A stretch of 64,000 nt of DNA from the NCBI GenBank assembly GCA_041658665.1, contig JBAZZR010000001.1:64576-128575 (forward strand), written 5' to 3'. Of the stretch, positions 4,158-28,193 are shown piece after piece. This DNA comes from Patescibacteria group bacterium. GTDB taxonomy: Bacteria; Patescibacteriota; Patescibacteriia; Patescibacteriales; UBA12465. The notes beneath the pieces are model-generated. The model was not told the DNA's origin. It worked only from the letters and a program-made list of their open reading frames with translations, and searched no databases. How positions within the stretch are numbered: position 1 is the first letter of the stretch; each line of letters opens with the position of its first letter. The position numbers and the translations under genes are program-made.

Positions 4158-4159
4158 AG

Positions 4160-4234
4160 TGGACCCCAAGGGATTCGAACCCTTGACCCCCTGCTTGCAA
4201 AGCAGGTGCTCTAACCAGACTGAGCTAGGGGCCC
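4160..4234 (-). tRNA. tRNA-Ala (anticodon UGC)
   Basis: The reverse complement folds as a cloverleaf. Acceptor GGGCCCC/GGGGTCC includes G3:U70. Anticodon loop is TTTGCAA. T-arm is AAGGG-TTCGAAT-CCCTT. No CCA is encoded. Confidence 0.95.
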
Positions 4235-15957: not shown

Positions 15958-18504
15958 ATGTTTAGGGAAAATATCCAAAACGAGAAAGAACAAATGGCCG
16001 CTCGGACAAAAGAGGTTGAAGCGGATTTTCATGAGCAAAAAATGTCCCAGTTTTTAGAGAATCATGAGGTTATCTCTTATAAAGATGGAGATTGTGTTAT
16101 TGATGTGGAAAAGATAAAGAATTTTTCTGTTTCAAAAACTATTGATAAGCAATATTACTTTGATGGTGTAATACATTATATAACCAATGCTGATATTTTT
16201 GAATTTTTAAAAGATAAACAAGGCCGGGCTCAGACGGACGAAGAAACATCAGATAAATTTTTATTGTCGGACGAGGGGTCTTCTTTACCAAGGGCGGGCT
16301 TGGACGCTCGGGCAATAAGCGTTCAAGAGAATAAAAACCAAACAAGCCCGATAGTTGCTTTGCCTAAAAATATTTATGATGCTAAAAATGGCGATTTGGA
16401 TGAAGGGATATTAAAACCTTGGGAAGTAACCACTCATCCTGATTTTCGTCATAAGACAAAATTAACTGATGGCGCCGAAGCTTCTCTGGCGGATTTATTT
16501 TATCTTAATAAAATTAAAGAGGCCAAAATCCACCGTGATCAGACTGGTGCTTTGGTCTATTGGGATGGAGCAGATAATCAGTTTAAAAAATTTGTAGCCA
16601 CTCAGTCTGATAAAATTTTTCAGCGGCGGATAGTCTTCTCCGAGCAAGGTAAAAATTATTCTTTTCATGATAATACTAGCATGTTTATCAATAAATTTTT
16701 GCCGTTAGTTAAATCATTGAATCTTTTTGAGGCCGAAGATTTTCGCCGTGTTTCCGGGTCATCGACGGCTCAAACTTTATTAGCCCATGAAAGAAAAATT
16801 TTTGGTAGCCCTTATATTAATATTTCTAATAGCGCTAAGCATGCTCGTTATTATATTGGCCGGGATAAAATAGTCGGTACGGATCAAAAGATTAATGAGA
16901 ATATGAGAGCAGTAGAACTAGATCAAAATTTAGTCGGTGTCACTGAAGATTCTTTTGGTCGTCGTAAATTATTATATACTTTTCAGAAATTTAATGATCA
17001 AGAATATAAGAACTATGGCCTAGAAGATAAGGAAAGTTCTTATTGTCTGGTTTCGGGCAAAGAAATGAAAAAGCGGGTGAATGAATATCAAATATCAGAC
17101 TATTTGCCCCAACATAAAGACGAAAGCGCCGCTAATTATGCTAATCGTTTAGCTAATTTAAACGATGTTAAATTAACGAGCCGGACTTTTCGAGATCTGG
17201 CCTTGAAAGCGGAGACGCCGATTAATGATTTATCTTGGGCCGAGCAGCTTTTAATTACTAATTATGCTTTTGAAAGTAAAGATGAAAATAAATTATTAAA
17301 TTTTGTTAAGCAGTATAAAGTTGATGGCTTGCGATCGCTTATTACCGCCGAAGTAGATCAGAGGGCGGGAGACAAAATTATGGCTATTAGTGAAAAATTA
17401 CCATTTGCTCAAGCGAAGACGGTTTTTGAAAAGATTAGTGGCCTTAATCAGATGGCTACCCGTAAAGCAGATGAACTGGTCGACGTTTTTTTTGACGCCG
17501 AACGCGGCCAGGCGCCGCTCATGATGAGTGTTCATAAGGCGTTACTCAAAAAGACAAGCGAAATTGTCACGGCTTTTTATGAACACCTGAAGAAGGATGA
17601 TAATATTGAAGATTTATTGAGTGAGCTGGAGAAATGTAAGGCTGAAATGATTATGCTGGCTTCGGTCTTGAAAGAAGGAAAACTACAAGGAGAAAAAATT
17701 GATTTAGAAACGATTAGAGATTTAAATTTGGAAATAAAAGATTATGGTCAAGATATTGCCGAGCCGGATAAGAAGAATATTTTAAAGATTGCCCAGGCCA
17801 ATTGGAAAAATTTTGGTAATGACAAGATGGCCCAGGTAGTTTATGACGGTTTAGTCGAGACTTTGAACCAGGCTCAAGAGCAAAAGGCTTATATTTTAAA
17901 ATATAAAGATGAGGTGATCGGTTTTGTCCGTTTTGAGCGGACTAGCCACGGTACGGTTTATGCTGGGTCTCTTAATGTTTCCAAGGATTTGCGAGGTTTA
18001 TCGATTGGCAATGAGTTAATGGAGAAAGCGCTCCTGAAAGAAGGGGAACTTAATATTTTGGAAGCCTCAGCTTCTATTAAAATTCCGGCGGGCTGTAATT
18101 ATATTGAGAAAATTGGTTTTATCGCTGATGGCCTAATCGTAGATTATCACGGCACAGGTGAAAATTTACTGTCCATTAAATTAGATAAGGAAAAGAATAA
18201 AGAGTATAGTTTGCGTAATGAAGGAAAAGATAAGTTGCTTAGTTCAAGGGAATTGCAGGAAGCCATTAATGATTATAAACAATTGGATAATTTAATGGGC
18301 CGACCATATATTGTTTTACGTTTTGACTTGAATACGGAAATGGCCGAATATCAAGCAGCTTTGAGCCGACTTTTGCCCCAGGTTGATGATAATTTAAAAC
18401 CGCTAGAAGATAAGCAGGGGAAATATACTCTGACTCGTTATTTTTATGATAAGAATGAAGATCCGAAAGGCAATATTCGTTATTTGGTTTTTGAAAAAAA
18501 TTAA
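15958..18504 (+). CDS. large orphan protein (848 aa) with C-terminal GNAT acetyltransferase-like domain
   Basis: The GNAT-like segment VIGFVRFERTSHGTVYAGSLNVSKDLRGLSIGNELMEKAL lies near residues 650-700. No motif is recognised in the first ~600 aa. No TM or signal peptide. Confidence 0.65.
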   Translation: MFRENIQNEKEQMAARTKEVEADFHEQKMSQFLENHEVISYKDGDCVIDVEKIKNFSVSKTIDKQYYFDGVIHYITNADIFEFLKDKQGRAQTDEETSDKFLLSDEGSSLPRAGLDARAISVQENKNQTSPIVALPKNIYDAKNGDLDEGILKPWEVTTHPDFRHKTKLTDGAEASLADLFYLNKIKEAKIHRDQTGALVYWDGADNQFKKFVATQSDKIFQRRIVFSEQGKNYSFHDNTSMFINKFLPLVKSLNLFEAEDFRRVSGSSTAQTLLAHERKIFGSPYINISNSAKHARYYIGRDKIVGTDQKINENMRAVELDQNLVGVTEDSFGRRKLLYTFQKFNDQEYKNYGLEDKESSYCLVSGKEMKKRVNEYQISDYLPQHKDESAANYANRLANLNDVKLTSRTFRDLALKAETPINDLSWAEQLLITNYAFESKDENKLLNFVKQYKVDGLRSLITAEVDQRAGDKIMAISEKLPFAQAKTVFEKISGLNQMATRKADELVDVFFDAERGQAPLMMSVHKALLKKTSEIVTAFYEHLKKDDNIEDLLSELEKCKAEMIMLASVLKEGKLQGEKIDLETIRDLNLEIKDYGQDIAEPDKKNILKIAQANWKNFGNDKMAQVVYDGLVETLNQAQEQKAYILKYKDEVIGFVRFERTSHGTVYAGSLNVSKDLRGLSIGNELMEKALLKEGELNILEASASIKIPAGCNYIEKIGFIADGLIVDYHGTGENLLSIKLDKEKNKEYSLRNEGKDKLLSSRELQEAINDYKQLDNLMGRPYIVLRFDLNTEMAEYQAALSRLLPQVDDNLKPLEDKQGKYTLTRYFYDKNEDPKGNIRYLVFEKN

Positions 18505-19328
18505 TTAGTGTCACTTATGTTTCCTTCTTTAGCTCTTGTTTCGGCCGGAGCTTTTGTTTGTTGAGCTTTAATAGTGCTGGCCAAATTTTCCCAAATATAT
18601 TCGAATAGTAGTTTATTCATTTGATAAATATTTTTATCTTCGATGACAATAGCCATTTTGTTATCTGACGAAACCACTTGATATGAGACTTTATTATCAT
18701 AGATTTGGACACCGCTACTAAAGTTATAGAATTCCGGAGCGAGAAAGCGAAATTCGGTAATTAAACTGTTAAAATTTTTGAGAAATTGGCGATTGAAAGA
18801 AGTATCAGCGATGATAATCTTTTTTTTAATGGCAGTCTTTTCGCGTTTCTTAGAATAGGCGTCGTTAATATCTTTGATATTTTTTTCTACCGCTTCAATA
18901 TCGGCAAAAGTATAAATGGTCGTTCGACTAGCCAAAGTGTCATTGAGACTTTTTTCAATACCCTCCTCTCCTTCATAAAATTTTACTCCCGGCTTATTGC
19001 TAATTAAACTATAAGCCGAAACTAGATCGGGCAGGGCACTAATAAATTCTTTTTTGTGTTTAATGGCGTCTTTTTCTTTTTGATCGGCAATCGTTTCGAG
19101 GCCGGATGGGTGTTCAGCCGAAAAGATAGTAATACCTTTAACTTCCTCGGTTTTAGATACTAGATTAAGCTTAATTAATTCATCCAAGCCTTTATAAGCG
19201 ACCCCCCGGGGTCTTTTTATTTTTTTGGCGATATTACTGGCTTTATCCGGACCCTGGTTTAGGAGACAGTCCAGGATTTCAGCCTGAACCTTGGATAAAC
19301 CGAGATTATAGAGGGTTTTTTCAAACAT
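18501..19328 (-). CDS. TrmB-family transcriptional regulator
   Basis: N-terminal wHTH LGLSKVQAEILDCLLNQGPDKASNIAKKIKRPRGVAYKGLDELIKLNLV. Its 3' end overlaps the convergent 848-aa gene by 4 nt. Confidence 0.7.
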   Translation of the reverse strand: MFEKTLYNLGLSKVQAEILDCLLNQGPDKASNIAKKIKRPRGVAYKGLDELIKLNLVSKTEEVKGITIFSAEHPSGLETIADQKEKDAIKHKKEFISALPDLVSAYSLISNKPGVKFYEGEEGIEKSLNDTLASRTTIYTFADIEAVEKNIKDINDAYSKKREKTAIKKKIIIADTSFNRQFLKNFNSLITEFRFLAPEFYNFSSGVQIYDNKVSYQVVSSDNKMAIVIEDKNIYQMNKLLFEYIWENLASTIKAQQTKAPAETRAKEGNISDTN

Positions 19329-19446
19329 ATATTTGGACTTCCTGAGGTTATTAGCCTTTAAGTGTGGCTTATAACCTGTGGAAAACTTTACAAAAATTAA
19401 ATTTTGTTTTGTTAATTATTTAAAGAGATACTTATCCTATAGCTAT

Positions 19447-19475
19447 ATTATAGCGCATATTGTAACTAGTGTCAA
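19447..19475 (-). promoter_or_regulatory. perfect-consensus sigma70 promoter for the TrmB-like gene
   Basis: The minus strand reads TTGACA (19475-19470), a 17-nt spacer and TATAAT (19452-19447). Confidence 0.7.
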
Positions 19476-19570
19476 CTTTTAAAAAGACAAAAAAATAAAA
19501 TAAATAGGCCTATTTTAAGCATCTCTGTATATATTTTTGTAACATTTGCTAAAAATAGTCTTTTTAAGTA

Positions 19571-19599
19571 TTGACAATAATCTAAAACAATGCTAAACT
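19571..19599 (+). promoter_or_regulatory. sigma70 promoter driving the island RNA
   Basis: TTGACA (19571-19576), a 17-nt spacer and TAAACT (19594-19599). Predicted start near 19606. Confidence 0.65.
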
Positions 19600-19605
19600 T
19601 AAGGT

Positions 19606-20400
19606 ATCGAAAATGAGAAAGGAAAGAGACGGGCAAAACAAGTACATTACATTCAAATAAAATAATGGAAGGAGAGAGTCATTATTAATCACGATACTAT
19701 TACTTCTATAACAAGGGTACTAGGCGGATTGAGCTTTCTCATTCTATATAGAGACAGATTTTTCCGCCCAGTACCCTTTTTGGTCAAAAAACGGAGCGGA
19801 TAGTCCTGAAGAGGAGAGAGGTTTAGCCGCTGCCTTAGTGCCCACAGCCTAAGGCGGAACTAAATAGTAAGAATGGTTATTAGGAATAGAAATATTAATG
19901 GTTAGCGCCACCCCATGTTGCTAGCCAGAGTTCCCGCCGGGCCATTTAACGAACTCCCCTTCATAACTATCCGCTTCAAGCGGAAACCGAAGCGACTACG
20001 GGATAGTTGCCCCAATTATTTAGGGAATAAATAACAGTTAAACTAATTTGTCAATTTTGGGAGATTAAATGGACACATAAGCTTTAGAAATAAAGTGGAG
20101 AGGGTTCATCTCCTGAGATTAACAAAAGTTTGACAGTTTGCTTCCGGATTAAATCCGGAATCAGGCGCCAAGTGAGTCAGGGCCAAGAAGCGTCGCAAAC
20201 CGCTTCAAGGTCGAGACGATCTTAGTACGGCGTGGCTCAGTTATCCGCCAGCTGGCGGATGAGCAAGCTCCCGGGACAGCACTAACGCCACCGTCTTCTT
20301 ACGAGGAGATCGGCTGAGCCCTAAACCTTGAACAAGCTTAGGCCCAGAAATTTCCTCGGAAAAATATAAGTTTGAGAGGGAAGAGTTCTTTAAATTATTT
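19606..20400 (+). ncRNA. candidate large structured non-coding RNA (~0.8 kb, unclassified)
   Basis: No ORF of 60 aa or more on either strand in the supplied track. Local GC by hand count is 35/60, 38/60 and 30/60 for the lines starting 20161, 20221 and 20281, against an AT-rich background. There are many verified hairpins (19715-19776, 19832-19855, 19973-19993, 20142-20160, 20187-20206, 20243-20260). The 3' boundary is uncertain. Confidence 0.6.
19715..19781 (+). terminator. terminator-like or attenuator hairpin inside the island RNA leader
   Basis: GGGTACTAGGCGGA ... TCCGCCCAGTACCC (14 bp, one mismatch) followed by TTTTT. It could end a ~175-nt sRNA or act as an attenuator. Confidence 0.4.
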
Positions 20401-20422
20401 CACAACAAAAAAGGAGTTCCGC

Positions 20423-20650
20423 GTGAGTAAAGTAAGCGCGGGAAGACATATGAGTGATATTCAATTAGCATTAATCAATGCGGGTTTAGTTAGTTCGCAG
20501 AAAATTAATGAAATCAATCGCCAGAAGGCGATTGATACAGAGTTTGTTAGAACCGCTAAAAAAGCGGTTCCCGGAGCCGGACGGAAAATCTGGCAAAAGT
20601 ACGCCGACCTGAAAAGGCGCGCTTCGAAAAATTTACAGTTTATCTATTAA
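20423..20650 (+). CDS. small basic protein (~75 aa), orphan
   Basis: AAGGAG at 20411-20416, 6 nt before the in-frame GTG at 20423; an ATG at 20450 is an alternative start. Lys/Arg-rich sequence ...RKIWQKYADLKRRASKNL. Confidence 0.5.
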   Translation: MSKVSAGRHMSDIQLALINAGLVSSQKINEINRQKAIDTEFVRTAKKAVPGAGRKIWQKYADLKRRASKNLQFIY

Positions 20651-20865
20651 ACTGTAAAAAAAATTTCTAAAAAAAGTTTCTAAAAACGCCGATATGCGGC
20701 ACGATTCCTAAGTTTCCGGCTTACCTCCAAGGTATCAAAGGGCTGTTTAGAAGGAATCAAAAATTTTAAATTAGTTTAGCTTATTCTGATTACAAAAAAT
20801 AAGCAGGCCATCCTACCGGACCGCCGAGGCTATCACTACGCCTGAAGTGTCCACCAAAGTTTAAA

Positions 20866-20943
20866 GAGCAGTGTCGTTCAAACATTGCTCTCCCTCCCGG
20901 GATGTGCGTCTCGGCTGATGAGTCGAAAATGACGAAAGGGAAG
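20866..20943 (+). ncRNA. type III hammerhead ribozyme, copy 1, with a 5'-adjacent hairpin
   Basis: Core: UCCCU-C (C17 at 20896). Stem I is CCGGGA/UCUCGG with loop UGUGCG. CUGAUGA at 20915-20921. Stem II is GUC-GAAAAU-GAC. GAAA at 20934-20937. Stem III is GGGA pairing with UCCC. Predicted cleavage falls between 20896 and 20897. The upstream hairpin is 20866-20890. Confidence 0.85.
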
Positions 20944-20986
20944 AACATTTACAACTAAATAGACAGTAATTTCATTTTTTGACTGA

Positions 20987-21048
20987 TTTATTTTAGTTAT
21001 TATTTTTAAAGTTTTAAAAAAGACTTTAGGGATAATAACTAAAATAAA
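20987..21048 (+). repeat. conserved AT-rich long hairpin (copy 1) between the ribozyme and the downstream start codon
   Basis: Arms TTTATTTTAGTTATTAT / ATAATAACTAAAATAAA form 17 perfect bp. The homologous copy at 24167-24225 carries compensatory changes. Confidence 0.7.
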
Positions 21049-21060
21049 AAGGAATATAAA

Positions 21061-21918
21061 ATGAAAGAAAAATATTATTTAATTAGCGATGATCTTGTTT
21101 TGTCTGAGCAAGAATTCGTTAATAAGTACAAAGTGTCTCGCGCGACTTACTATCGTGCCAAAAAGTCCGGCTATTTCATGCTGGAATATCATAAGAGGGA
21201 GATTGAGATAAATAGTGTTTTTGTTGAAAATAATTTGGCGTTAATATTTGAGTGCGCCAAGATGGCGTCGTATATTGTAGCGAGGAGATACTGGGGTCCT
21301 CTTTATTGGAGAGAAATTCAAAAAAAGTTTGGCATCACAACCGTCGACTTCCGTGATGAGGCGTTTTTGAGAATTGTTGAAAGGAGTGCGCATATTGCTG
21401 AAAAAACAGCTGGTGCTAGCGATAGCTCAAGACGTTGTTATATGCTAAAAGCCGCAAAATACGCGGTGCAGGAGTTTATTTCATTAAAACTATTTCGTTA
21501 TAGTGATAGGAATAGTCGTTTTGACGAAGAAAATAACGAAGAGGATGATAGGAGCGGTAGGATCTTTTCCTATGATCCAACCAATGAAATACATGCGCGC
21601 GTTGACACAATGGGTTCTAGAACTGAAAAAATTATCCGCTTATTAAACGAAAATGAGCGGAAAATATTTTTGGCCATCTGCGCTGGCTGGGATAGGGAGG
21701 AAATAGCGTTTCTAGATAACATAGATAACATTACGTCCACTGAAATATTAGATCGGATTAAAAAAATAATTAAAAAAATCCGGCTATTGTATGGAATTAG
21801 TGAGGGAAGAGTTGATTGGTATCCGCCTAAAACGGATAAAAATCACTCAGAAGAATTGCGTCAACTTCGTAAGAAAGTAGCGCAATATCTAAATGAAAAT
21901 TCTGTTCACTTAGTGTAA
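21061..21918 (+). CDS. divergent sigma-70-like / HTH DNA-binding protein
   Basis: N-terminal HTH (KVSRATYYRAKKSG). The C-terminal segment LNENERKIFLAICAGWDREEIA...ILDRIKKIIKKIR resembles sigma-70 region 4. FRDEAFLRIVERS resembles region 2. No database check was possible. Confidence 0.45.
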   Translation: MKEKYYLISDDLVLSEQEFVNKYKVSRATYYRAKKSGYFMLEYHKREIEINSVFVENNLALIFECAKMASYIVARRYWGPLYWREIQKKFGITTVDFRDEAFLRIVERSAHIAEKTAGASDSSRRCYMLKAAKYAVQEFISLKLFRYSDRNSRFDEENNEEDDRSGRIFSYDPTNEIHARVDTMGSRTEKIIRLLNENERKIFLAICAGWDREEIAFLDNIDNITSTEILDRIKKIIKKIRLLYGISEGRVDWYPPKTDKNHSEELRQLRKKVAQYLNENSVHLV

Positions 21919-21953
21919 AAATTAATCAATAAAAATAAAAAGGAGTCACAATC

Positions 21954-22706
21954 ATGGTTACGAAGGCGAAAGCAATTTTATTGTCAACGGAATTTATTAA
22001 TGGTTTAACTCAATTTATTCCGCAATTTTGTAGTGGTGAAGTAGTTTGGGATAATTATCACGCTTCCGCACTCTGCGGCGGGACATTAATCCCGGTTATA
22101 TTTAAATTCCGGGCGGGCGAGAAACCATCTACAGATCAGGCCTATAATGTAATAGTTTCCTCCGCGCGCGGCGACCAAGCTCGCCGGGAAAATCGAGCGA
22201 CGATTGATCACTGGGAATTGAAGTTTTATCCAGTGGGAGTCGATGAAGCAAAAAATAAATTTTATTTTCTAAGCTGTAAATTTGACGAAGAAATAGAATT
22301 TGAAAATCGAAAAGTCCCTGAAAATATAATCCGTTTCAAGGGGGTCAGTATGAAGGGAGTCATTTTTTCCCAACCGATTGGAGTTGAACCTAAATATGAT
22401 ATCCAATTAGTAACAACTGAAGTCGTATTTGACAGTTCGGTTATGCTACGTCTTGAAGGAGCGCAAACAAAAATTTTGCGTGGGCATAAGATAATAGAAA
22501 AAAAAGATAAATTTTTATCAATAGTCATCTACGATCATCGTAAAGTTTATGATGTCGTGGCTCAATGTTGTCATGAACGAAAAATTCTCAGTAATGGTCG
22601 AGTATTTGACTATTATAAACTCCACAATTTTATCGATGACGGACGTGGAGTTAATCATATTCTCACCGCTGACGGTATTTCAGCGGTAGAAGAAACGGTA
22701 GTTTAG
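21954..22706 (+). CDS. orphan protein (250 aa)
   Basis: AAGGAG ribosome-binding site 7 nt upstream. No TM, signal peptide or recognisable motif. Confidence 0.6.
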   Translation: MVTKAKAILLSTEFINGLTQFIPQFCSGEVVWDNYHASALCGGTLIPVIFKFRAGEKPSTDQAYNVIVSSARGDQARRENRATIDHWELKFYPVGVDEAKNKFYFLSCKFDEEIEFENRKVPENIIRFKGVSMKGVIFSQPIGVEPKYDIQLVTTEVVFDSSVMLRLEGAQTKILRGHKIIEKKDKFLSIVIYDHRKVYDVVAQCCHERKILSNGRVFDYYKLHNFIDDGRGVNHILTADGISAVEETVV

Positions 22707-22717
22707 TGCTAAGTTCT

Positions 22718-22800
22718 GCAGATTAGTTTGTTCAACTAATCTGCCTCTTTTCAAGGGCAGTAAAAATTTTAGTGCCCTTGAAATCGGATTCTTTAATAAC
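22718..22800 (+). terminator. double-hairpin terminator-like module, copy A
   Basis: Hairpin 1 is GCAGATTAGT/ACTAATCTGC followed by CTCTTTTC. Hairpin 2 is TCAAGGGCA/TGCCCTTGA with a loop GTAAAAATTTTAG. The homologous module is at 25404-25470. Confidence 0.55.
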
Positions 22801-22827
22801 GTGAGTCAGAAATAATCTTTATTTCAC

Positions 22828-22885
22828 AATATTGGACAGTACTTTGAATATATTTTAATAAATATTTAGAGTACTGCCCAATATT
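22828..22885 (+). promoter_or_regulatory. internal promoter bracketed by 16-nt inverted repeats (candidate operator)
   Basis: TTGAAT (22844-22849), a 17-nt spacer and TAGAGT (22867-22872). It is flanked by AATATTGGACAGTACT (22828-22843) and AGTACTGCCCAATATT (22870-22885), which match at 15 of 16 positions as an inverted repeat. Confidence 0.45.
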
Positions 22886-22971
22886 AGGCAGGGTCAGCCA
22901 ATGTCCAGTCGTAGTCCGTAAAAAAATAATTAGGACCAGACAAATGACAACGGCAAAAACAAGGAGTAGAA

Positions 22972-23550
22972 ATGAGAACTTATTTTTGGAATCGCGGTAG
23001 CTTAATCCCCGGTATATCCGTCACTAAAGATGATAAACTAGGCTTTATAGTTTATCTCGGTGAGGATGGGCGAGGTAGACGTTATGAAAAAGTTGGTCTA
23101 CTGAGAAATAACCCGGCGGAAATTATAGATGGGAAAATTTTTGAAGCTCATCCGGTTAGAATTACCGTTGGTAAAGGTACGGACAAAGAAAGAAATTTTT
23201 TTGTTCTCGCCAAGTCGATCGACAACGCCGATCCCCGTGTTATTGTCCATGTAAATACGGAATGTGTTTACACCCGCGACACTGTAGGTAAATGGACAAT
23301 GAAAGTCGGGGCCCCAGAAACCATAGTTAAGGCCTATGGCGCTCACGGAATTGCTGGCCGGATTGGTAATTGGGATGACGGGTTGATATTAATGAAACCA
23401 GGAGATGTTTTGGAGATTCGCCCGGAAGGTGGTCATAAGGTAGATTCCTACGCGCTATTTTTCGATGCGGAAGGAATCTTAACATCCATGGTTTGGAAAG
23501 ATTACGAAGCTATGCAAGCTATTTCCGGCGGGGAGGTAGATTGGTTATGA
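22972..23550 (+). CDS. orphan protein (192 aa)
   Basis: AAGGAG ribosome-binding site upstream. The stop codon overlaps the next start (ATGA at 23547-23550). Confidence 0.6.
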   Translation: MRTYFWNRGSLIPGISVTKDDKLGFIVYLGEDGRGRRYEKVGLLRNNPAEIIDGKIFEAHPVRITVGKGTDKERNFFVLAKSIDNADPRVIVHVNTECVYTRDTVGKWTMKVGAPETIVKAYGAHGIAGRIGNWDDGLILMKPGDVLEIRPEGGHKVDSYALFFDAEGILTSMVWKDYEAMQAISGGEVDWL

Positions 23551-24008
23551 AAACATTAAAATGTTTTACTCTGTCTGGGAAAGACGTTTCTCCCGTGATT
23601 AAAATGGAAAAAGGAAAAATTTCCTGTTGGGGTGGGCCCGGTCAACCCGACATTCCTTTCGTTTATGCTCTAAATCCTGAAGTAAACGAATATAGTATTG
23701 CTAATATCGGTAAAAAAACTAATCAATTTTTTTTACAAATTGGTGAAGGAGAAGTTGACCAGCATCAAACCCTAGTTTTTGTCCATGAATATTTTAATGG
23801 GTCTGGTGCAAAAAGATGGCCCGGTTTCCACATTGATTGGAATAATGCCGGACAAGTGGAAATTTTGATTCAGACCCAGCGCCACTATGGGAGCGGTTCC
23901 GATACTTGGTCGTTAATCATCGCTCCACACGGCTGGGTAGAAAATATTGCCGCTCAATTTATTGATGAGCGAGATTATCCGAGTCAGATTATTTCCTACA
24001 AATTGTAA
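23547..24008 (+). CDS. orphan protein (153 aa), translationally coupled to the upstream ORF
   Basis: ATG at 23547 preceded by GGAGG at 23532-23536. The ORF-track start at 23493 lies inside the upstream gene and has no ribosome-binding site. Confidence 0.55.
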   Translation: MKTLKCFTLSGKDVSPVIKMEKGKISCWGGPGQPDIPFVYALNPEVNEYSIANIGKKTNQFFLQIGEGEVDQHQTLVFVHEYFNGSGAKRWPGFHIDWNNAGQVEILIQTQRHYGSGSDTWSLIIAPHGWVENIAAQFIDERDYPSQIISYKL

Positions 24009-24060: not shown

Positions 24061-24139
24061 GAGCAGCTTTTGTTCAAAAGCTGCTCTCCCTCCCGAGATG
24101 CGTGTCTCGGCTGATGAGTCCGAAAGGACGAAAGGGAAG
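24061..24139 (+). ncRNA. type III hammerhead ribozyme, copy 2, with a 5'-adjacent hairpin
   Basis: Upstream hairpin GAGCAGCTTTT/AAAAGCTGCTC (24061-24086). UCCCU-C (C17 at 24092). Stem I is CCGAGA/UCUCGG. CUGAUGA at 24111-24117. Stem II is GUCC-GAAA-GGAC. GAAA at 24130-24133. Stem III is GGGA. Predicted cleavage falls between 24092 and 24093. Confidence 0.88.
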
Positions 24140-24166
24140 GACCTTAAAAATTAAATAAGACTATGA

Positions 24167-24225
24167 TTATTTAGTTACTATTTTTGAAGTTTTAAAAAAA
24201 GACTTTAGAGATAGTAACTAAATAA
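24167..24225 (+). repeat. conserved AT-rich long hairpin (copy 2)
   Basis: Arms TTATTTAGTTACTAT / ATAGTAACTAAATAA form 15 perfect bp. The T-to-C change on one arm is matched by an A-to-G change on the other, relative to copy 1. Confidence 0.7.
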
Positions 24226-24274
24226 TAAAAATCAAAAAATCCGCGGTCCCGACGTATTCGGGCAAGGAGAAAAA

Positions 24275-25643: not shown

Positions 25644-28193
25644 ATGTCTAGACGAAAAAAAAATAATCCCTTGGATTACGTAACTTTACCGGAATTTGAC
25701 TTAGACGAAAAGGCTAAGCGCAGTATCATTATTGTTATTCTTTTGGCCTTCGGCTTAATTAGCCTACTCGGACTTTTTGATTTGTCCGGTCATTTCGGTT
25801 TATTTATTTCTAAATGGTTAACCCTTATTTTTGGTTTTGGTAAGTGGTTAGTACCGCTAATCTTTTTATATTGGGCGCTTATTCTTATTCGTCAGTCTAA
25901 GAAACCTCTTAAATTTACTGATTACCTAGGCTTATTTCTTTTATTTATTTCTTATCAGACTTTATTTCATTTTTTTATTGATCCGGCTAATTGGTTGGTT
26001 GCGGTTGCCCAAGGTTACGGCGGTGGTTATGTCGGACTATATCTTAGTCAGTTATGTTTTTATGTTTTTGGTTTTTGGGGTAGCGCTTTAGTTCTGGCGG
26101 CCGGTTTACTTATTTCCTTAGTCTTAGTTTTTAACACTTCACTGTCGCGAATAATTGGGCGGGATAGTTTATTAGCTAAATTGTTAAGTCCTTTTGGACA
26201 ATTTTTTAAATTTTTATTTTCTCGTTCTGCTGCCGAAGACGAAACGGGGCAACAATTTGTCGCGGAAGCACGCGAAGAAATTTTAAGTGCTTGGCAGCAG
26301 CGGGAAGTACCGGCTAAATTAGAAAAAATTGAGGATGAGGAAGAAAATGAATTGCCTACTTTAGCAGCCCTAAAAAAAGACGTGACGCCGAAACAAGAAA
26401 AAATCGTTTGGCCGAAACGTTCGATTAAGATTGATATGCCGATTGAATTATTAAATAATAAATTTAGTAAAGCTCATGGCGGCGATACCGAAGCTAATCT
26501 TCAGAAGATTCAGAAGACTTTGGAAAAATTTGGTATTCCGGTCGAAATGGGAGAGACTAAAGTCGGCCCGACGGTTACGCAGTATACTTTTCGTCCGGCG
26601 GAAGGCGTAAAATTATCGCGGATTACGACTTTAAATAATGATTTAAGTTTGGCTTTAGCGGCTCATCCGATTAGAATTGAAGCGCCTATTCCCGGGAAAT
26701 CTTTAGTCGGTGTAGAAGTGCCTAATAAAGCTAAAGCGATCGTCGGGTTGCGGGAAATTTTAGAGGATAGCGCTTTTAAGAGTCGTAAGAATAATTTATA
26801 TATCGCTTTAGGCAAAGACGTTTCTGGCGCGGCCTGGCTTTATGATCTTAGTAAGATGCCGCATCTTCTAGTGGCGGGAGCGACAAATTCCGGTAAGTCG
26901 GTTTGTTTGAATGCTATTATCGTGAGCCTTCTTTATCAGAATAATCCTGACAGTCTGCGTTTTATTATGGTTGACCCTAAGCGCGTGGAACTGCCGACTT
27001 ATAATGGTATTCCTCATTTATTAACCCCCGTCGTGACTGACGTTAATAAAACAATTAATGCTTTGAAATGGTGTTTGAATGAGATGGATAGGCGTTATGA
27101 TATTTTAAATAAAGCCGGCAAAAAAAATATTCAATCTTATAACGCGATTAATCAAGAGAAGTTGCCTTTCATTGTTTTTATAATTGATGAGTTAGCGGAT
27201 TTTATGATGACCGCCGGCAAAGATATGGAAGCGGCGATTATTCGATTAGCGCAGATGTCGCGAGCGATTGGTATTCATCTTATTTTAGCGACACAGCGGC
27301 CGAGCGTTGACGTTATTACCGGTCTTATTAAAGCCAATATTCCTTCGCGTATTGCTTTTTCGGTCGCCTCTTTAGTCGATTCAAAAACAATTTTAGATTC
27401 TTCGGGCGCCGAAAAATTATTAGGTCAAGGTGATATGCTTTTTTCGACCGCGGAATTTTCTAAACCGAAAAGAATTCAGGGAGCATATCTAAGCGAGAGC
27501 GAAATTAATGATGTCGTTAATTATATTAAGGAGAAAAGTGGCCCGGCGGAATATTTAGACGGGATAACTGATCGTCAGAAAGTTGGCGGTAATGCCGGAA
27601 TTGGTTTAGATGGCACGCACGGCGATGAAGATGAGTTATTTCAAGAAGCGCAAGAAATTATTGTGAAAGCGGGAAAAGCTTCGACTTCGATGTTACAACG
27701 TCGTTTGTCTATTGGTTACGGCCGCGCCGCGAAAATTTTAGATATGCTTGAAGAGGCGGGAGTAATTGGTCCGAGTAATGGCTCGAAGCCGCGAGAAGTT
27801 ATGATTAGCCGTGAGCAGTATGAATCTTTGAATGGTGGTCTTAGCGCTCTGCCGCTTCATAATCGGGCGGAAACGCCGGCTCCGGATAGTTATTTAGACG
27901 AAGAAGGAGATGATGATACTTTAGTTTTTAAAGATAATCATGATACTGCGGCCGGCGATGATGAGGAAATAGATTCCTCGGCCGTTAGTGATGAGGAAAT
28001 AAAAGAGGAACTAGAGCTTACTCCGGCAGAGGAAGAAGAGGTAATCGAAGATGAGGACGAAATTTTGGACAAGATTAGAGAGGAAGATAGAGAACTCTCC
28101 GCCCAGGAGTCGGCGCCAATCGTTACTCCGCCCGTGTCAAGTAAAAAGCATAATCCCCTTGAGGATGATGATGAGATGTTTTTTTCTAAATAG
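25644..28193 (+). CDS. ftsK: DNA translocase FtsK/SpoIIIE
   Basis: N-terminal TM helices. Walker A GATNSGKS, Walker B IIDELAD, the gamma-domain SMLQRRLSIGYGRAAKILD, then an unusually long acidic tail. Confidence 0.93.
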   Translation: MSRRKKNNPLDYVTLPEFDLDEKAKRSIIIVILLAFGLISLLGLFDLSGHFGLFISKWLTLIFGFGKWLVPLIFLYWALILIRQSKKPLKFTDYLGLFLLFISYQTLFHFFIDPANWLVAVAQGYGGGYVGLYLSQLCFYVFGFWGSALVLAAGLLISLVLVFNTSLSRIIGRDSLLAKLLSPFGQFFKFLFSRSAAEDETGQQFVAEAREEILSAWQQREVPAKLEKIEDEEENELPTLAALKKDVTPKQEKIVWPKRSIKIDMPIELLNNKFSKAHGGDTEANLQKIQKTLEKFGIPVEMGETKVGPTVTQYTFRPAEGVKLSRITTLNNDLSLALAAHPIRIEAPIPGKSLVGVEVPNKAKAIVGLREILEDSAFKSRKNNLYIALGKDVSGAAWLYDLSKMPHLLVAGATNSGKSVCLNAIIVSLLYQNNPDSLRFIMVDPKRVELPTYNGIPHLLTPVVTDVNKTINALKWCLNEMDRRYDILNKAGKKNIQSYNAINQEKLPFIVFIIDELADFMMTAGKDMEAAIIRLAQMSRAIGIHLILATQRPSVDVITGLIKANIPSRIAFSVASLVDSKTILDSSGAEKLLGQGDMLFSTAEFSKPKRIQGAYLSESEINDVVNYIKEKSGPAEYLDGITDRQKVGGNAGIGLDGTHGDEDELFQEAQEIIVKAGKASTSMLQRRLSIGYGRAAKILDMLEEAGVIGPSNGSKPREVMISREQYESLNGGLSALPLHNRAETPAPDSYLDEEGDDDTLVFKDNHDTAAGDDEEIDSSAVSDEEIKEELELTPAEEEEVIEDEDEILDKIREEDRELSAQESAPIVTPPVSSKKHNPLEDDDEMFFSK

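Follow-up and report, generated by a model that had tools for sequence, protein, structure and literature searches.

A family of large structured non-coding RNAs beside a TrmBL2-like regulator gene and hammerhead-bounded gene cassettes in Patescibacteria

Bacterial RNAs that are large, elaborately folded and of unknown function are uncommon, and the handful of classes described so far are each a target of structural and functional study. GOLLD, ROOL and OLE, which range from several hundred to more than 1000 nucleotides (nt), are built of many covarying helices joined by highly conserved junction sequences and have one conserved and one variable half; OLE sits inside an operon. Attenuators and riboswitch leaders are recognized by a promoter-proximal hairpin followed by a terminator hairpin and U-run, the 5' strand of which pairs with an upstream segment, and the CsrB/RsmZ sponges by several copies of a short purine motif containing GGA in hairpin loops. 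In addition, the RAGATH approach has found new ribozymes near hammerhead-associated genes, and members of its collection proved to be ribozymes or a TnpB guide scaffold (PMC11061315). Here, a stretch of 64,000 nt from a Patescibacteria group bacterium (the 822-kb contig JBAZZR010000001.1; the whole stretch is called the window, and positions are counted from its first letter) is shown to carry a large structured non-coding RNA of an uncatalogued family, which matches none of the 4227 families of Rfam 15 and on which no report was found. The type of locus in which it lies, where a TrmBL2-like regulator gene accompanies a large RNA and cassettes that are bounded by hammerheads and rich in ring nucleases, has no description known to us.

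The first-pass annotation of this DNA had placed a consensus promoter, TTGACA-17-TAAACT, about 800 nt upstream of the next plausible start codon and had proposed a large ornate RNA between the two. Both landmarks are where it had put them (Table 1): the promoter is of the sigma-70 type, has a TG extended -10 box and recurs in homologues, and the next plausible start is a GTG at 20423, 824 nt after the -10 box, with a ribosome-binding site (RBS), AAAGGAG, at 20410-20416. The promoter motif is present in 21 of 25 homologous loci tested, at a constant distance to a conserved 5' leader, the other four being sequences cut off near the RNA's 5' end. The RNA would start at 19606, the 7th nt after the -10 box, and its 3' end is placed at 20398, the point where conservation stops, at GUUCUUUAAA. 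No open reading frame (ORF) of 60 amino acids (aa) or more is found on either strand of 19606-20422, as had been noted; the biggest internal ORFs have 39 and 37 aa, and a 54-aa ORF at 19472-19636 (-) overlaps only the 5' edge of the interval. The hand counts of G and C made at the time (35, 38 and 30 of 60) are exact, and the rise that they indicated is real, with 43.9% over the RNA, 46% in its 3' domain and a peak of 54% among 200-nt windows, whereas the description of the genome as AT-rich is only moderately true because the window mean is 39.4%.

The folding energy points the same way, the + strand having a minimum free energy of -267.8 kcal/mol as against -205.9 +/- 9.2 for dinucleotide shuffles (z = -6.75). 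As the reverse strand reaches z = -5.77 against its shuffles, folding energy alone leaves the strand undecided, and it is the promoter and the homologues that decide it. No terminator-like site was found at the RNA's 3' end, and the RNA is therefore probably co-transcribed with the genes downstream, the whole forming what is probably one transcript.

No described RNA family accounts for the element. With Rfam 15, the whole window at gathering scores gave no family over the RNA and positions 19300-20800 at E <= 10 gave chance-level snoRNA and miRNA noise only; twelve homologous loci at gathering scores gave no family, and the longest homologue at E <= 5 gave chance-level noise only. The comparison with the GOLLD, ROOL, OLE, HEARO and raiA models that had been recommended was thus carried out and yielded no match to any of them, so that the proposed placement among the large ornate bacterial RNAs is apt as a description and fails as membership of these families. 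Signatures of RNase P, tmRNA, SRP and 6S RNA, which the first reading had sought in vain, are absent from the covariance-model searches as well, and ARAGORN reported no tmRNA in the window, only a tRNA-Ala at 4159-4234. Several candidates were also rejected on further grounds: OLE, because the neighbours are a TrmBL2-like regulator and unrelated cassettes with no oapA-type gene; HEARO or IscB omega-RNA, because no IscB, TnpB or HNH gene lies nearby; group I and group II introns, because the RNA is intergenic and starts at its own promoter; and RNase P, considered for a superficial similarity (GAGGAGAUC, GCAAACCG), because the RNA has a variable length and a fixed locus, with no model match in any of these cases. 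A full-text literature search found nothing on structured RNAs or hammerheads in Patescibacteria.

The existence of an RNA family is, in our view, near certain. The first related locus, L003, was reached through the only homologue of a neighbouring 285-aa protein; its RNA is 85% identical to the window RNA over 764 nt, lies after a TrmB-like gene, keeps the promoter and carries an extra insertion of ~200 nt, and conservation between the two ends exactly before the RBS of the next gene, which is unrelated in L003. Between the same two genomes, nucleotide identity is 72% for the Mur ligase gene, 77% for ftsK and 80% for the start of rpoB. An alignment of TrmB-like proteins led to 80 loci from GTDB species representatives, in which nhmmer detected the RNA in 12 further species and one partial copy, on the strand opposite the regulator gene and just upstream of it, and a degenerate three-block DNA pattern retrieved 20 metagenome loci, all 20 with the RNA; across these sets the nhmmer matches reach E-values as low as 1e-200. 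A covariance model, R1, built from the 83-nt 3' core and searched against the TrmB loci, had matches in 13 close and 11 distant loci, each lying upstream of the regulator gene and on the opposite strand, the distant copies at E 2e-7 to 4e-5 and with labels including Moraniibacteriota, Falkowbacteria and Paceibacterota.

The collection of homologues advised at the outset thus amounts to ~27 close and 11 distant copies, ~38 loci in all, from Patescibacteria metagenome-assembled genomes and metagenomes; the family was found here only in Patescibacteria. Measured from the inferred start to the end of conservation, the close homologues have lengths between 473 nt (L021) and 1105 nt (L086). The divergent position upstream of the TrmBL2-like gene is shared by all distant copies and by all close copies for which that flank was fetched. 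The mobile or phage-like context that the first-pass annotation had named as frequent for such RNAs was not borne out: blastn against phage records gave no match, viral contigs gave none with two neighbouring proteins, two exact RNA 20-22-mers or the degenerate three-block pattern, and the window ORFs had no match among the PHROG families. The phage or mobile-element reading was dropped because viral contigs and phage records gave no match. The locus is instead a hypervariable chromosomal site in a fixed place between the TrmBL2-like regulator gene and ftsK (window, L003 and L099); in the window and L003 it lies between the regulator and ftsK, Mur ligase and rpoB, and in L099 ftsK again follows the array.

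Covariation was assessed in three alignments, A3 (24 sequences, 3' domain), A4 (19 sequences, alignable 5' domain) and A6 (18 sequences, 3' core with distant members), and RIBOSUM RNAalifold was used for the consensus structure of the 3' domain, because a naive all-against-all covariation scan was too noisy from G.U pairs and purine/pyrimidine transitions. In A3, 82 pairs in 12 helices are paired in 91.9% of cells, compared with 83.1% after shuffling (0/500) and 36-52% with slid partners, and 44 pairs are changed on both sides where 28.3 are expected. The corresponding values for A4, with 46 pairs in 5 helices, are 90.3%, 81.7% (0/500) and 34-51%, with 26 pairs changed on both sides against 15.8 expected; A6, which was fitted to the covariance model and so leans towards structure, has 18 pairs in 3 helices, 93.5% paired against 72.7% shuffled and 36-54% slid, and 17 pairs changed on both sides against 10.9. 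The shuffle control leaves the phylogenetic signal in, and the slid-partner control partly removes it. Covariation, the lack of which would have told against the first-pass annotation, is present above both controls in all three alignments, and supports a total of 128 base pairs in the 3' and 5' domains; variable regions were aligned by sequence alone, and helices there are consequently under-counted.

The same material disposes of the idea that the region is a protein gene that has decayed or is read in another genetic code, or that it is a divergent form of a known RNA such as RNase P or an intron, a reading that can be regarded as effectively refuted. Its one support is that some homologues contain stop-free stretches of 46-122 aa in some frame. 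When close pairs are compared, the majority of indels have lengths not divisible by three and disrupt the frame, and mismatches fall about equally on all three codon positions with no codon periodicity, which rules out the frameshifted pseudogene or other-code alternative that had been held against the RNA; moreover, the covariation fits RNA helices, the length varies from 473 to 1105 nt by whole-hairpin modules, and a known RNA is contradicted by the Rfam and ARAGORN searches described above. The central proposal, a large structured non-coding RNA behind a promoter, is in this way upheld by conservation across species in ~38 loci, an 85% identity to L003 that exceeds the 72-80% of the RpoB, FtsK and Mur ligase genes, the absence of a coding signal and of an Rfam match, and many helices with compensatory changes in excess of controls.

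Seven local helices had been listed from the letters, and the arms of all seven are present as given; as conserved pairings they fare unequally. Helices 4 (20142-20160), 5 (20187-20206) and 6 (20243-20260) are supported by compensatory changes. Helices 1 and 2 are real and lie in variable parts: helix 1 (19715-19776) pairs at 13 of 14 positions, with one A.C mismatch, is kept with sequence changes in the window's subgroup and is followed by a U5 run, and helix 2 (19832-19855), with two compensatory changes relative to L003, is inside a variable insert. Helices 3 and 7 did not stand, since helix 3 (GCTTC/GAAGC) conflicts with the well-supported 21-base-pair (bp) helix 19794-19816/19954-19976, and helix 7 (GAGTTC/GAACTC), which overlaps the 21-bp helix as well, is conserved in neither L003 nor L007.

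The RNA consists of a modular 5' domain and a conserved 3' domain. The 5' leader is the insertion point of an optional module of ~200-250 nt, which about half of the members carry (L003, L023, L024, L005, L086, L089 and others). In hairpin 1, which follows, 4 of 7 pairs are changed on both sides, and columns G66-G73, in the loop, show no variation among 19 sequences. Folding of each segment then reveals, in 18 of 19 members, a stable hairpin directly before a run of U4-U9, 35-100 nt after hairpin 1 and within the transcript, which is the form of an intrinsic terminator; a strict regular expression with a hairpin finder had given 8 loci only. The 5' strand of this hairpin (CUCUCUCC, CUCUUUCC or CUUUCUUC) is an 8/8 complement of GGAGAGAG in 14 of 19 members, G.U counted; in the window it is a 7/8 complement, and helix 1 forms a long outer stem around the hairpin. 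Further downstream, the long-range helix is paired in 92.6% of cells, with 7 pairs changed on both sides. Several distant TrmB loci (e.g. L058, L062, L078 and L080) keep the promoter, the GGAGAGAG hairpin and the CUCUCUCC hairpin with its U-run. In L021, the shortest member, the 3' domain begins only 93 nt after the inferred start; the leader and the two short hairpins are kept, and hairpin 1, the terminator-like hairpin and the long-range helix are missing. Because L021 keeps the 3' domain without most 5' elements, the 3' domain is regarded as the core of the family.

Table 1. Features of the RNA locus in the window (positions counted from the first letter of the window).
Feature	Position	Strand	Remarks
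TrmBL2-like DNA-binding regulator gene, 275 aa	18501-19328	-	Pfam TrmB helix-turn-helix, E 1.4e-8; RNA's constant genomic partner
Promoter-like site for regulator gene	19447-19475	-	TTGACA-17-TATAAT, 12/12
RNA promoter	19571-19599	+	TTGACA-17-TAAACT = TTGACA, N14, TG, N, TAAACT (extended -10), score 10/12
Large non-coding RNA	19606-20398	+	~793 nt; alignments, nhmmer matches, fold z, no Rfam match
Conserved 5' leader	19606-19661	+	AUCGAAARUGAGA...; alignment
Hairpin 1	19662-19685	+	stem AUAAUGG/UCAUUAU, invariant purine loop AAGGAGAGAG
Terminator-like element	19715-19781	+	14-bp outer stem (helix 1), inner CUUUCUC/GAGACAG stem, then U5
Long-range 21-bp helix	19794-19816 with 19954-19976	+	encloses variable insert 19817-19953, which holds hairpin 19832-19855
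Two short hairpins	19992-19998/20007-20013 and 20015-20022/20028-20035	+	6/7 and 8/8 pairs changed on both sides
Conserved 3' domain	20049-20398	+	12 helices, 82 bp; third purine motif GGAGAGGG at 20097
3' core element	20284-20365	+	CGAGGAG-AUCGG...CCUUGAACAAG...UUUCCUCG; most widely conserved piece; 17/18 pairs changed on both sides
First downstream ORF, 75 aa	20423-20650	+	GTG start, RBS AAAGGAG; not conserved across family
Type III hammerhead ribozyme 1	20889-20943	+	predicted cut after C20896; found as direct repeat
AT-rich palindrome, 29-nt arms	20987-21048	+	between hammerhead 1 and next gene
Cassette of four ORFs (285, 250, 192, 153-171 aa)	21061-24008	+	no family match
Type III hammerhead ribozyme 2	24085-24139	+	predicted cut after C24092; found as direct repeat
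AT-rich palindrome, 35-nt arms	24159-24233	+	after hammerhead 2, before start of next gene
Last cassette ORF, 370 aa	24275-25387	+	no family match; ftsK next at 25644

The purine motif GGAGAGAG recurs through the modular 5' domain, each RNA having 1-5 invariant copies that sit in hairpin loops or on the 3' side of loops, with every inserted module adding a copy of its own. In the window, purine motifs lie at 19671, at 19813 (the second GGAGAGAG, within the region of the long-range helix) and at 20097, with a related sequence in the 3' tail, and 2 of the 3 exact GGAGAGAG sites of the 64-kb window fall in the RNA. Such repetition would be expected if the RNA were a decoy or sponge that titrates a protein or RNA through its GGAGAGAG loops in the manner of CsrB/RsmZ, and the gain of one copy with each module fits that idea. 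Known sponges, however, are simple strings of hairpins, whereas this RNA has long-range helices and a multi-helix core free of the motif, the copy at 19813 is used inside a helix, and no candidate partner was found, so that a role as a sponge is improbable. As a separate candidate, mimicry of a Shine-Dalgarno sequence by AAGGAGAGAG was considered and is unlikely, because only 3 of 38 long ORFs in the window have GGAG upstream and no conserved start codon follows the loop.

The regulator gene, the constant companion of the RNA, is divergently oriented and shares with the RNA promoter a common control region of ~240 nt. An AlphaFold2 (AF2) model of the regulator (pLDDT 86) has its best fold match in the PDB with the archaeal chromatin protein TrmBL2 (5bpd, E 2e-12), and comprises a winged helix, a long helix and a PLD/Zucchini-like C-terminal domain without the HKD motif; a CARF or other cyclic-nucleotide sensor domain was considered and rejected on this TrmBL2-like fold. 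Relative to L003, only the first ~380 nt of the gene are well conserved (79% nucleotide identity), and overall aa identity is 53%. A palindrome, TTGACA-N4-TGTCAA, overlies the -35 box in the RNA promoters of L008, L014, L019, L021, L023, L024, L028, L089, L090 and L095, and could be the regulator's operator; the window promoter is without the second half-site. Upstream of the regulator, positions 15958-18504 (+) encode a protein of 848 aa whose only annotated part is a GNAT acetyltransferase domain at the C-terminus; L003 has an unrelated protein of 1173 aa at this place.

Downstream of the RNA, conservation ends 10-100 nt before an RBS and an ORF that differs between genomes. The 75-aa ORF of the window has a 71%-identical copy in L007 and an unrelated 150-aa ORF at its place in L003, and no Pfam, PHROG or PADLOC match was found for it. 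A small basic protein of 75-85 aa, with an S-D/E-I/M-Q-L/I-A-L...G-L motif and a C-terminus rich in K/R, is encoded immediately after the RNA in the window, L007 and L024, and may be a partner that binds RNA. Positions 20651-20860 (+), which separate the 75-aa ORF from hammerhead 1, are ~210 nt without ORFs, with a relatively high GC content of ~43%, not conserved in L003.

Two hammerhead ribozymes of type III punctuate the genes that follow. Their core is complete in both copies, with C3-A9 (CUGAUGA), G12-A14 (GAA), the A15.1-U16.1 pair, C17 and three stems, stem III being open. Hammerhead 1 aligns to RF00008 over positions 1-54 of 54 with 34.4 bits (E 2.5e-6 in a 121-nt search); the whole-window Rfam scans missed both hammerheads because this is below the gathering score of 48.5, a low score that is due to the short loops. 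About 40 further copies occur in related loci, with stems I, II and III covarying among them; hammerheads are found only on the strand of the RNA, never antisense, with 1-3 per locus in ~23 of 29 loci, and in the usual arrangement the RNA and one ORF come first, then a hammerhead, further ORFs, another hammerhead and so forth. In L078 and L080, ~180-330 nt after the promoters, CUGACGAG...GAAGC follows the two-hairpin module and could be a hammerhead-like core variant.

The 285-aa gene recurs in L003 with its upstream hammerhead and palindrome (window 20876-21050 is 86% identical to L003:9809-9987), after five other genes there and after one in the window; as the gene travels with its own hammerhead and palindrome, the hammerhead behaves as part of the cassette, and the changed position of the unit in the array suggests cassette shuffling. 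The AT-rich palindromes may mark cassette boundaries, form translational hairpins or be RNase III sites. Since the 3' domain holds, ahead of the first cassette, the position that a hammerhead holds before every other one, it might itself be a new self-processing ribozyme, a proposal also encouraged by the resemblance of the 3' tail (GGGAAGAGUUCUUUAAA) to the sequence that follows hammerhead cores (GAAAGGGAAGUUCUUU) and by the precedent of new ribozymes near hammerhead-associated genes (PMC11061315). At ~350 nt, however, the domain is far above known self-cleavers, contains no hammerhead, twister, pistol or hatchet core and bears no sign of a cleavage site, and this proposal is accordingly highly improbable.

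The window's own cassette ORFs had no match in the family libraries searched. In related loci (L003-L104), the commonest cassette families are accessory families of type III CRISPR systems, several of them side by side (for example in L005:1000-3900 and in L019:1000-3900, on the - strand): C3a116/DHH_CorA phosphodiesterase-like (E 2e-67/1e-50), AAA-Csx3 (8e-54), Mvol_0529-fam (2.5e-25), Unk_01 (6e-25), STIV_B116-like or DUF1874 (4e-11), Csx16 (1.6e-9) and viperin-like radical SAM (2e-9). Csx3 (Crn3), DUF1874 (Crn2/AcrIII-1) and Csx16 are established ring nucleases of cyclic tetra-adenylate, and Unk_01 is a candidate. Among ordinary type III loci, only ~4% of those positive for a ring nuclease have two or more ring-nuclease genes (PMC12409355). 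Neither the window nor the fetched flanks showed cas genes, and the window showed no CRISPR arrays.

From these contents a wider role can be imagined, in which a counter-defence island specific to Patescibacteria has the RNA as its control or sensor hub, and the RNA and a TrmBL2-like repressor jointly gate the hammerhead-processed array of shuffled cassettes; we regard this as distinctly speculative. If it were true, products of the array (AAA-Csx3/Crn3, Csx16, Unk_01, DUF1874/Crn2-AcrIII-1-like proteins, DHH/NrN-like phosphodiesterases and a viperin-like radical SAM enzyme) would destroy or modify cyclic-oligoadenylate immune messengers, so that these host-dependent bacteria would blunt type III CRISPR or related signalling, either their own or that of host cells. 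The GGAGAGAG-studded RNA would then be a sensor or decoy that couples this arsenal to a signal of infection or contact.

For the RNA itself, the best explanation at present, to which we assign a probability of roughly 0.55, is that it forms the structured head of an operon processed by hammerheads, acting both as an attenuator and as a scaffold. One long transcript would begin with the RNA, and the hammerheads would cut it into units, leaving the RNA attached to the first cistron. The hairpin and U-run ~35-100 nt after hairpin 1 would serve as an internal attenuator, and termination would be averted when the GGAGAGAG loop in hairpin 1 pairs with the 5' strand, of CUCUCUCC type, of the terminator hairpin. 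Production of the full RNA and of the operon would therefore depend on a factor occupying the GGAGAGAG loops, and the complete RNA, which displays additional loops on a rigid scaffold, would take up more of this factor. Taken by itself, the attenuator-plus-scaffold mechanism falls somewhat short of even odds.

A number of points weigh against this explanation. The ends of the RNA, termination and readthrough are all deduced from sequence. GGAGAGAG and its partner strand are nearly invariant, with a pairing of 7/8 in the window, and the invariance of GGAGAGAG puts the proposed antiterminator pairing outside the reach of covariation. To our knowledge, a leader of ~800 nt with more than 17 conserved helices far exceeds any known cis-regulatory leader. 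That L021 is without the 5' switch means that switching is not the main purpose of the RNA, and the variation of the first downstream gene between genomes speaks against control of a specific gene. The idea that AAGGAG binds ribosomes is likewise weak, as GGAG lies within 20 nt upstream of only 3 of the 38 long ORFs with an ATG start in the window; the genome thus makes little use of Shine-Dalgarno sequences, the 75-aa ORF (AAAGGAG) being the exception.

Some of these points are better served by an independent, trans-acting ornate RNA or ribonucleoprotein like OLE, GOLLD and ROOL, which would merely share the transcript and be processed out of it as a scaffold, catalyst or multimeric particle. 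The varying downstream genes, the L021 copy reduced to the core without the switch, and an identity to L003 above that of the housekeeping genes (85% versus 72-80%) are all in keeping with it, as is a resemblance to GOLLD and ROOL in size, helix count, conserved junctions and the partition into a variable 5' and a conserved 3' half. On the other hand, the 3' end has no terminator or recognisable processing site, the only constant protein partner is a DNA-binding regulator, and no self-complementary loops were seen that would suggest oligomerisation. An independent trans-acting RNA is thus possible and, on this balance, rather unlikely; the structured head of a hammerhead-processed operon is the explanation that we prefer.

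Whichever role it has, the RNA adds a class from the Candidate Phyla Radiation, where RNA biology is almost unexplored, and its context is unusually rich, with a fixed regulator partner, an invariant repeated loop motif, a terminator-like switch, and hammerheads as cassette boundaries. Three questions are hereby opened to test: the role of natural hammerheads in bacterial operons, the purpose of large ornate RNAs, and the existence of dedicated anti-signalling islands in ultra-small symbiotic bacteria.

Set against the systems from which we started, the RNA is closest in its overall build to GOLLD, ROOL and OLE, sharing their size range, covarying helices, conserved junctions and uneven halves, and with OLE the place inside an operon. 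It differs from them in having no sequence or structure match to the Rfam models, in its occurrence in Patescibacteria, in the absence of a phage or tRNA neighbourhood and of an OapA-type partner, and in possessing its own conserved promoter beside a TrmBL2-like regulator gene, repeated GGAGAGAG loops and hammerhead-separated cassettes behind it. Attenuators and riboswitch leaders have the same order of promoter-proximal hairpin and terminator hairpin with an upstream-pairing 5' strand; here, in contrast, ~600 nt of further conserved structure come after the terminator, no aptamer family matches, the genes controlled are not conserved, and L021 dispenses with the switch. CsrB/RsmZ sponges likewise present multiple copies of a GGA-containing loop motif (1-5 of the GGAGAGAG type in this family), whereas the RNA described here has a complex long-range fold rather than a simple architecture of repeated hairpins, a motif of 8 nt that is invariant, and no CsrA-like or other cognate protein seen. 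The RAGATH RNAs are conserved RNAs that also neighbour hammerhead ribozymes and their associated genes (PMC11061315), yet no RAGATH model matches, the only trace being RAGATH-17 at a chance-level 18.9 bits over the hammerhead, and the RNA is about ten times larger than RAGATH-18 (~73 nt), the sole RAGATH motif whose size was compared. The hammerheads themselves are of the standard type III with full core, like those between bacterial or phage genes; unlike the known intergenic hammerheads, they here repeatedly mark the boundaries of cassettes, at a chromosomal locus that is fixed in place and has a large RNA at its head.

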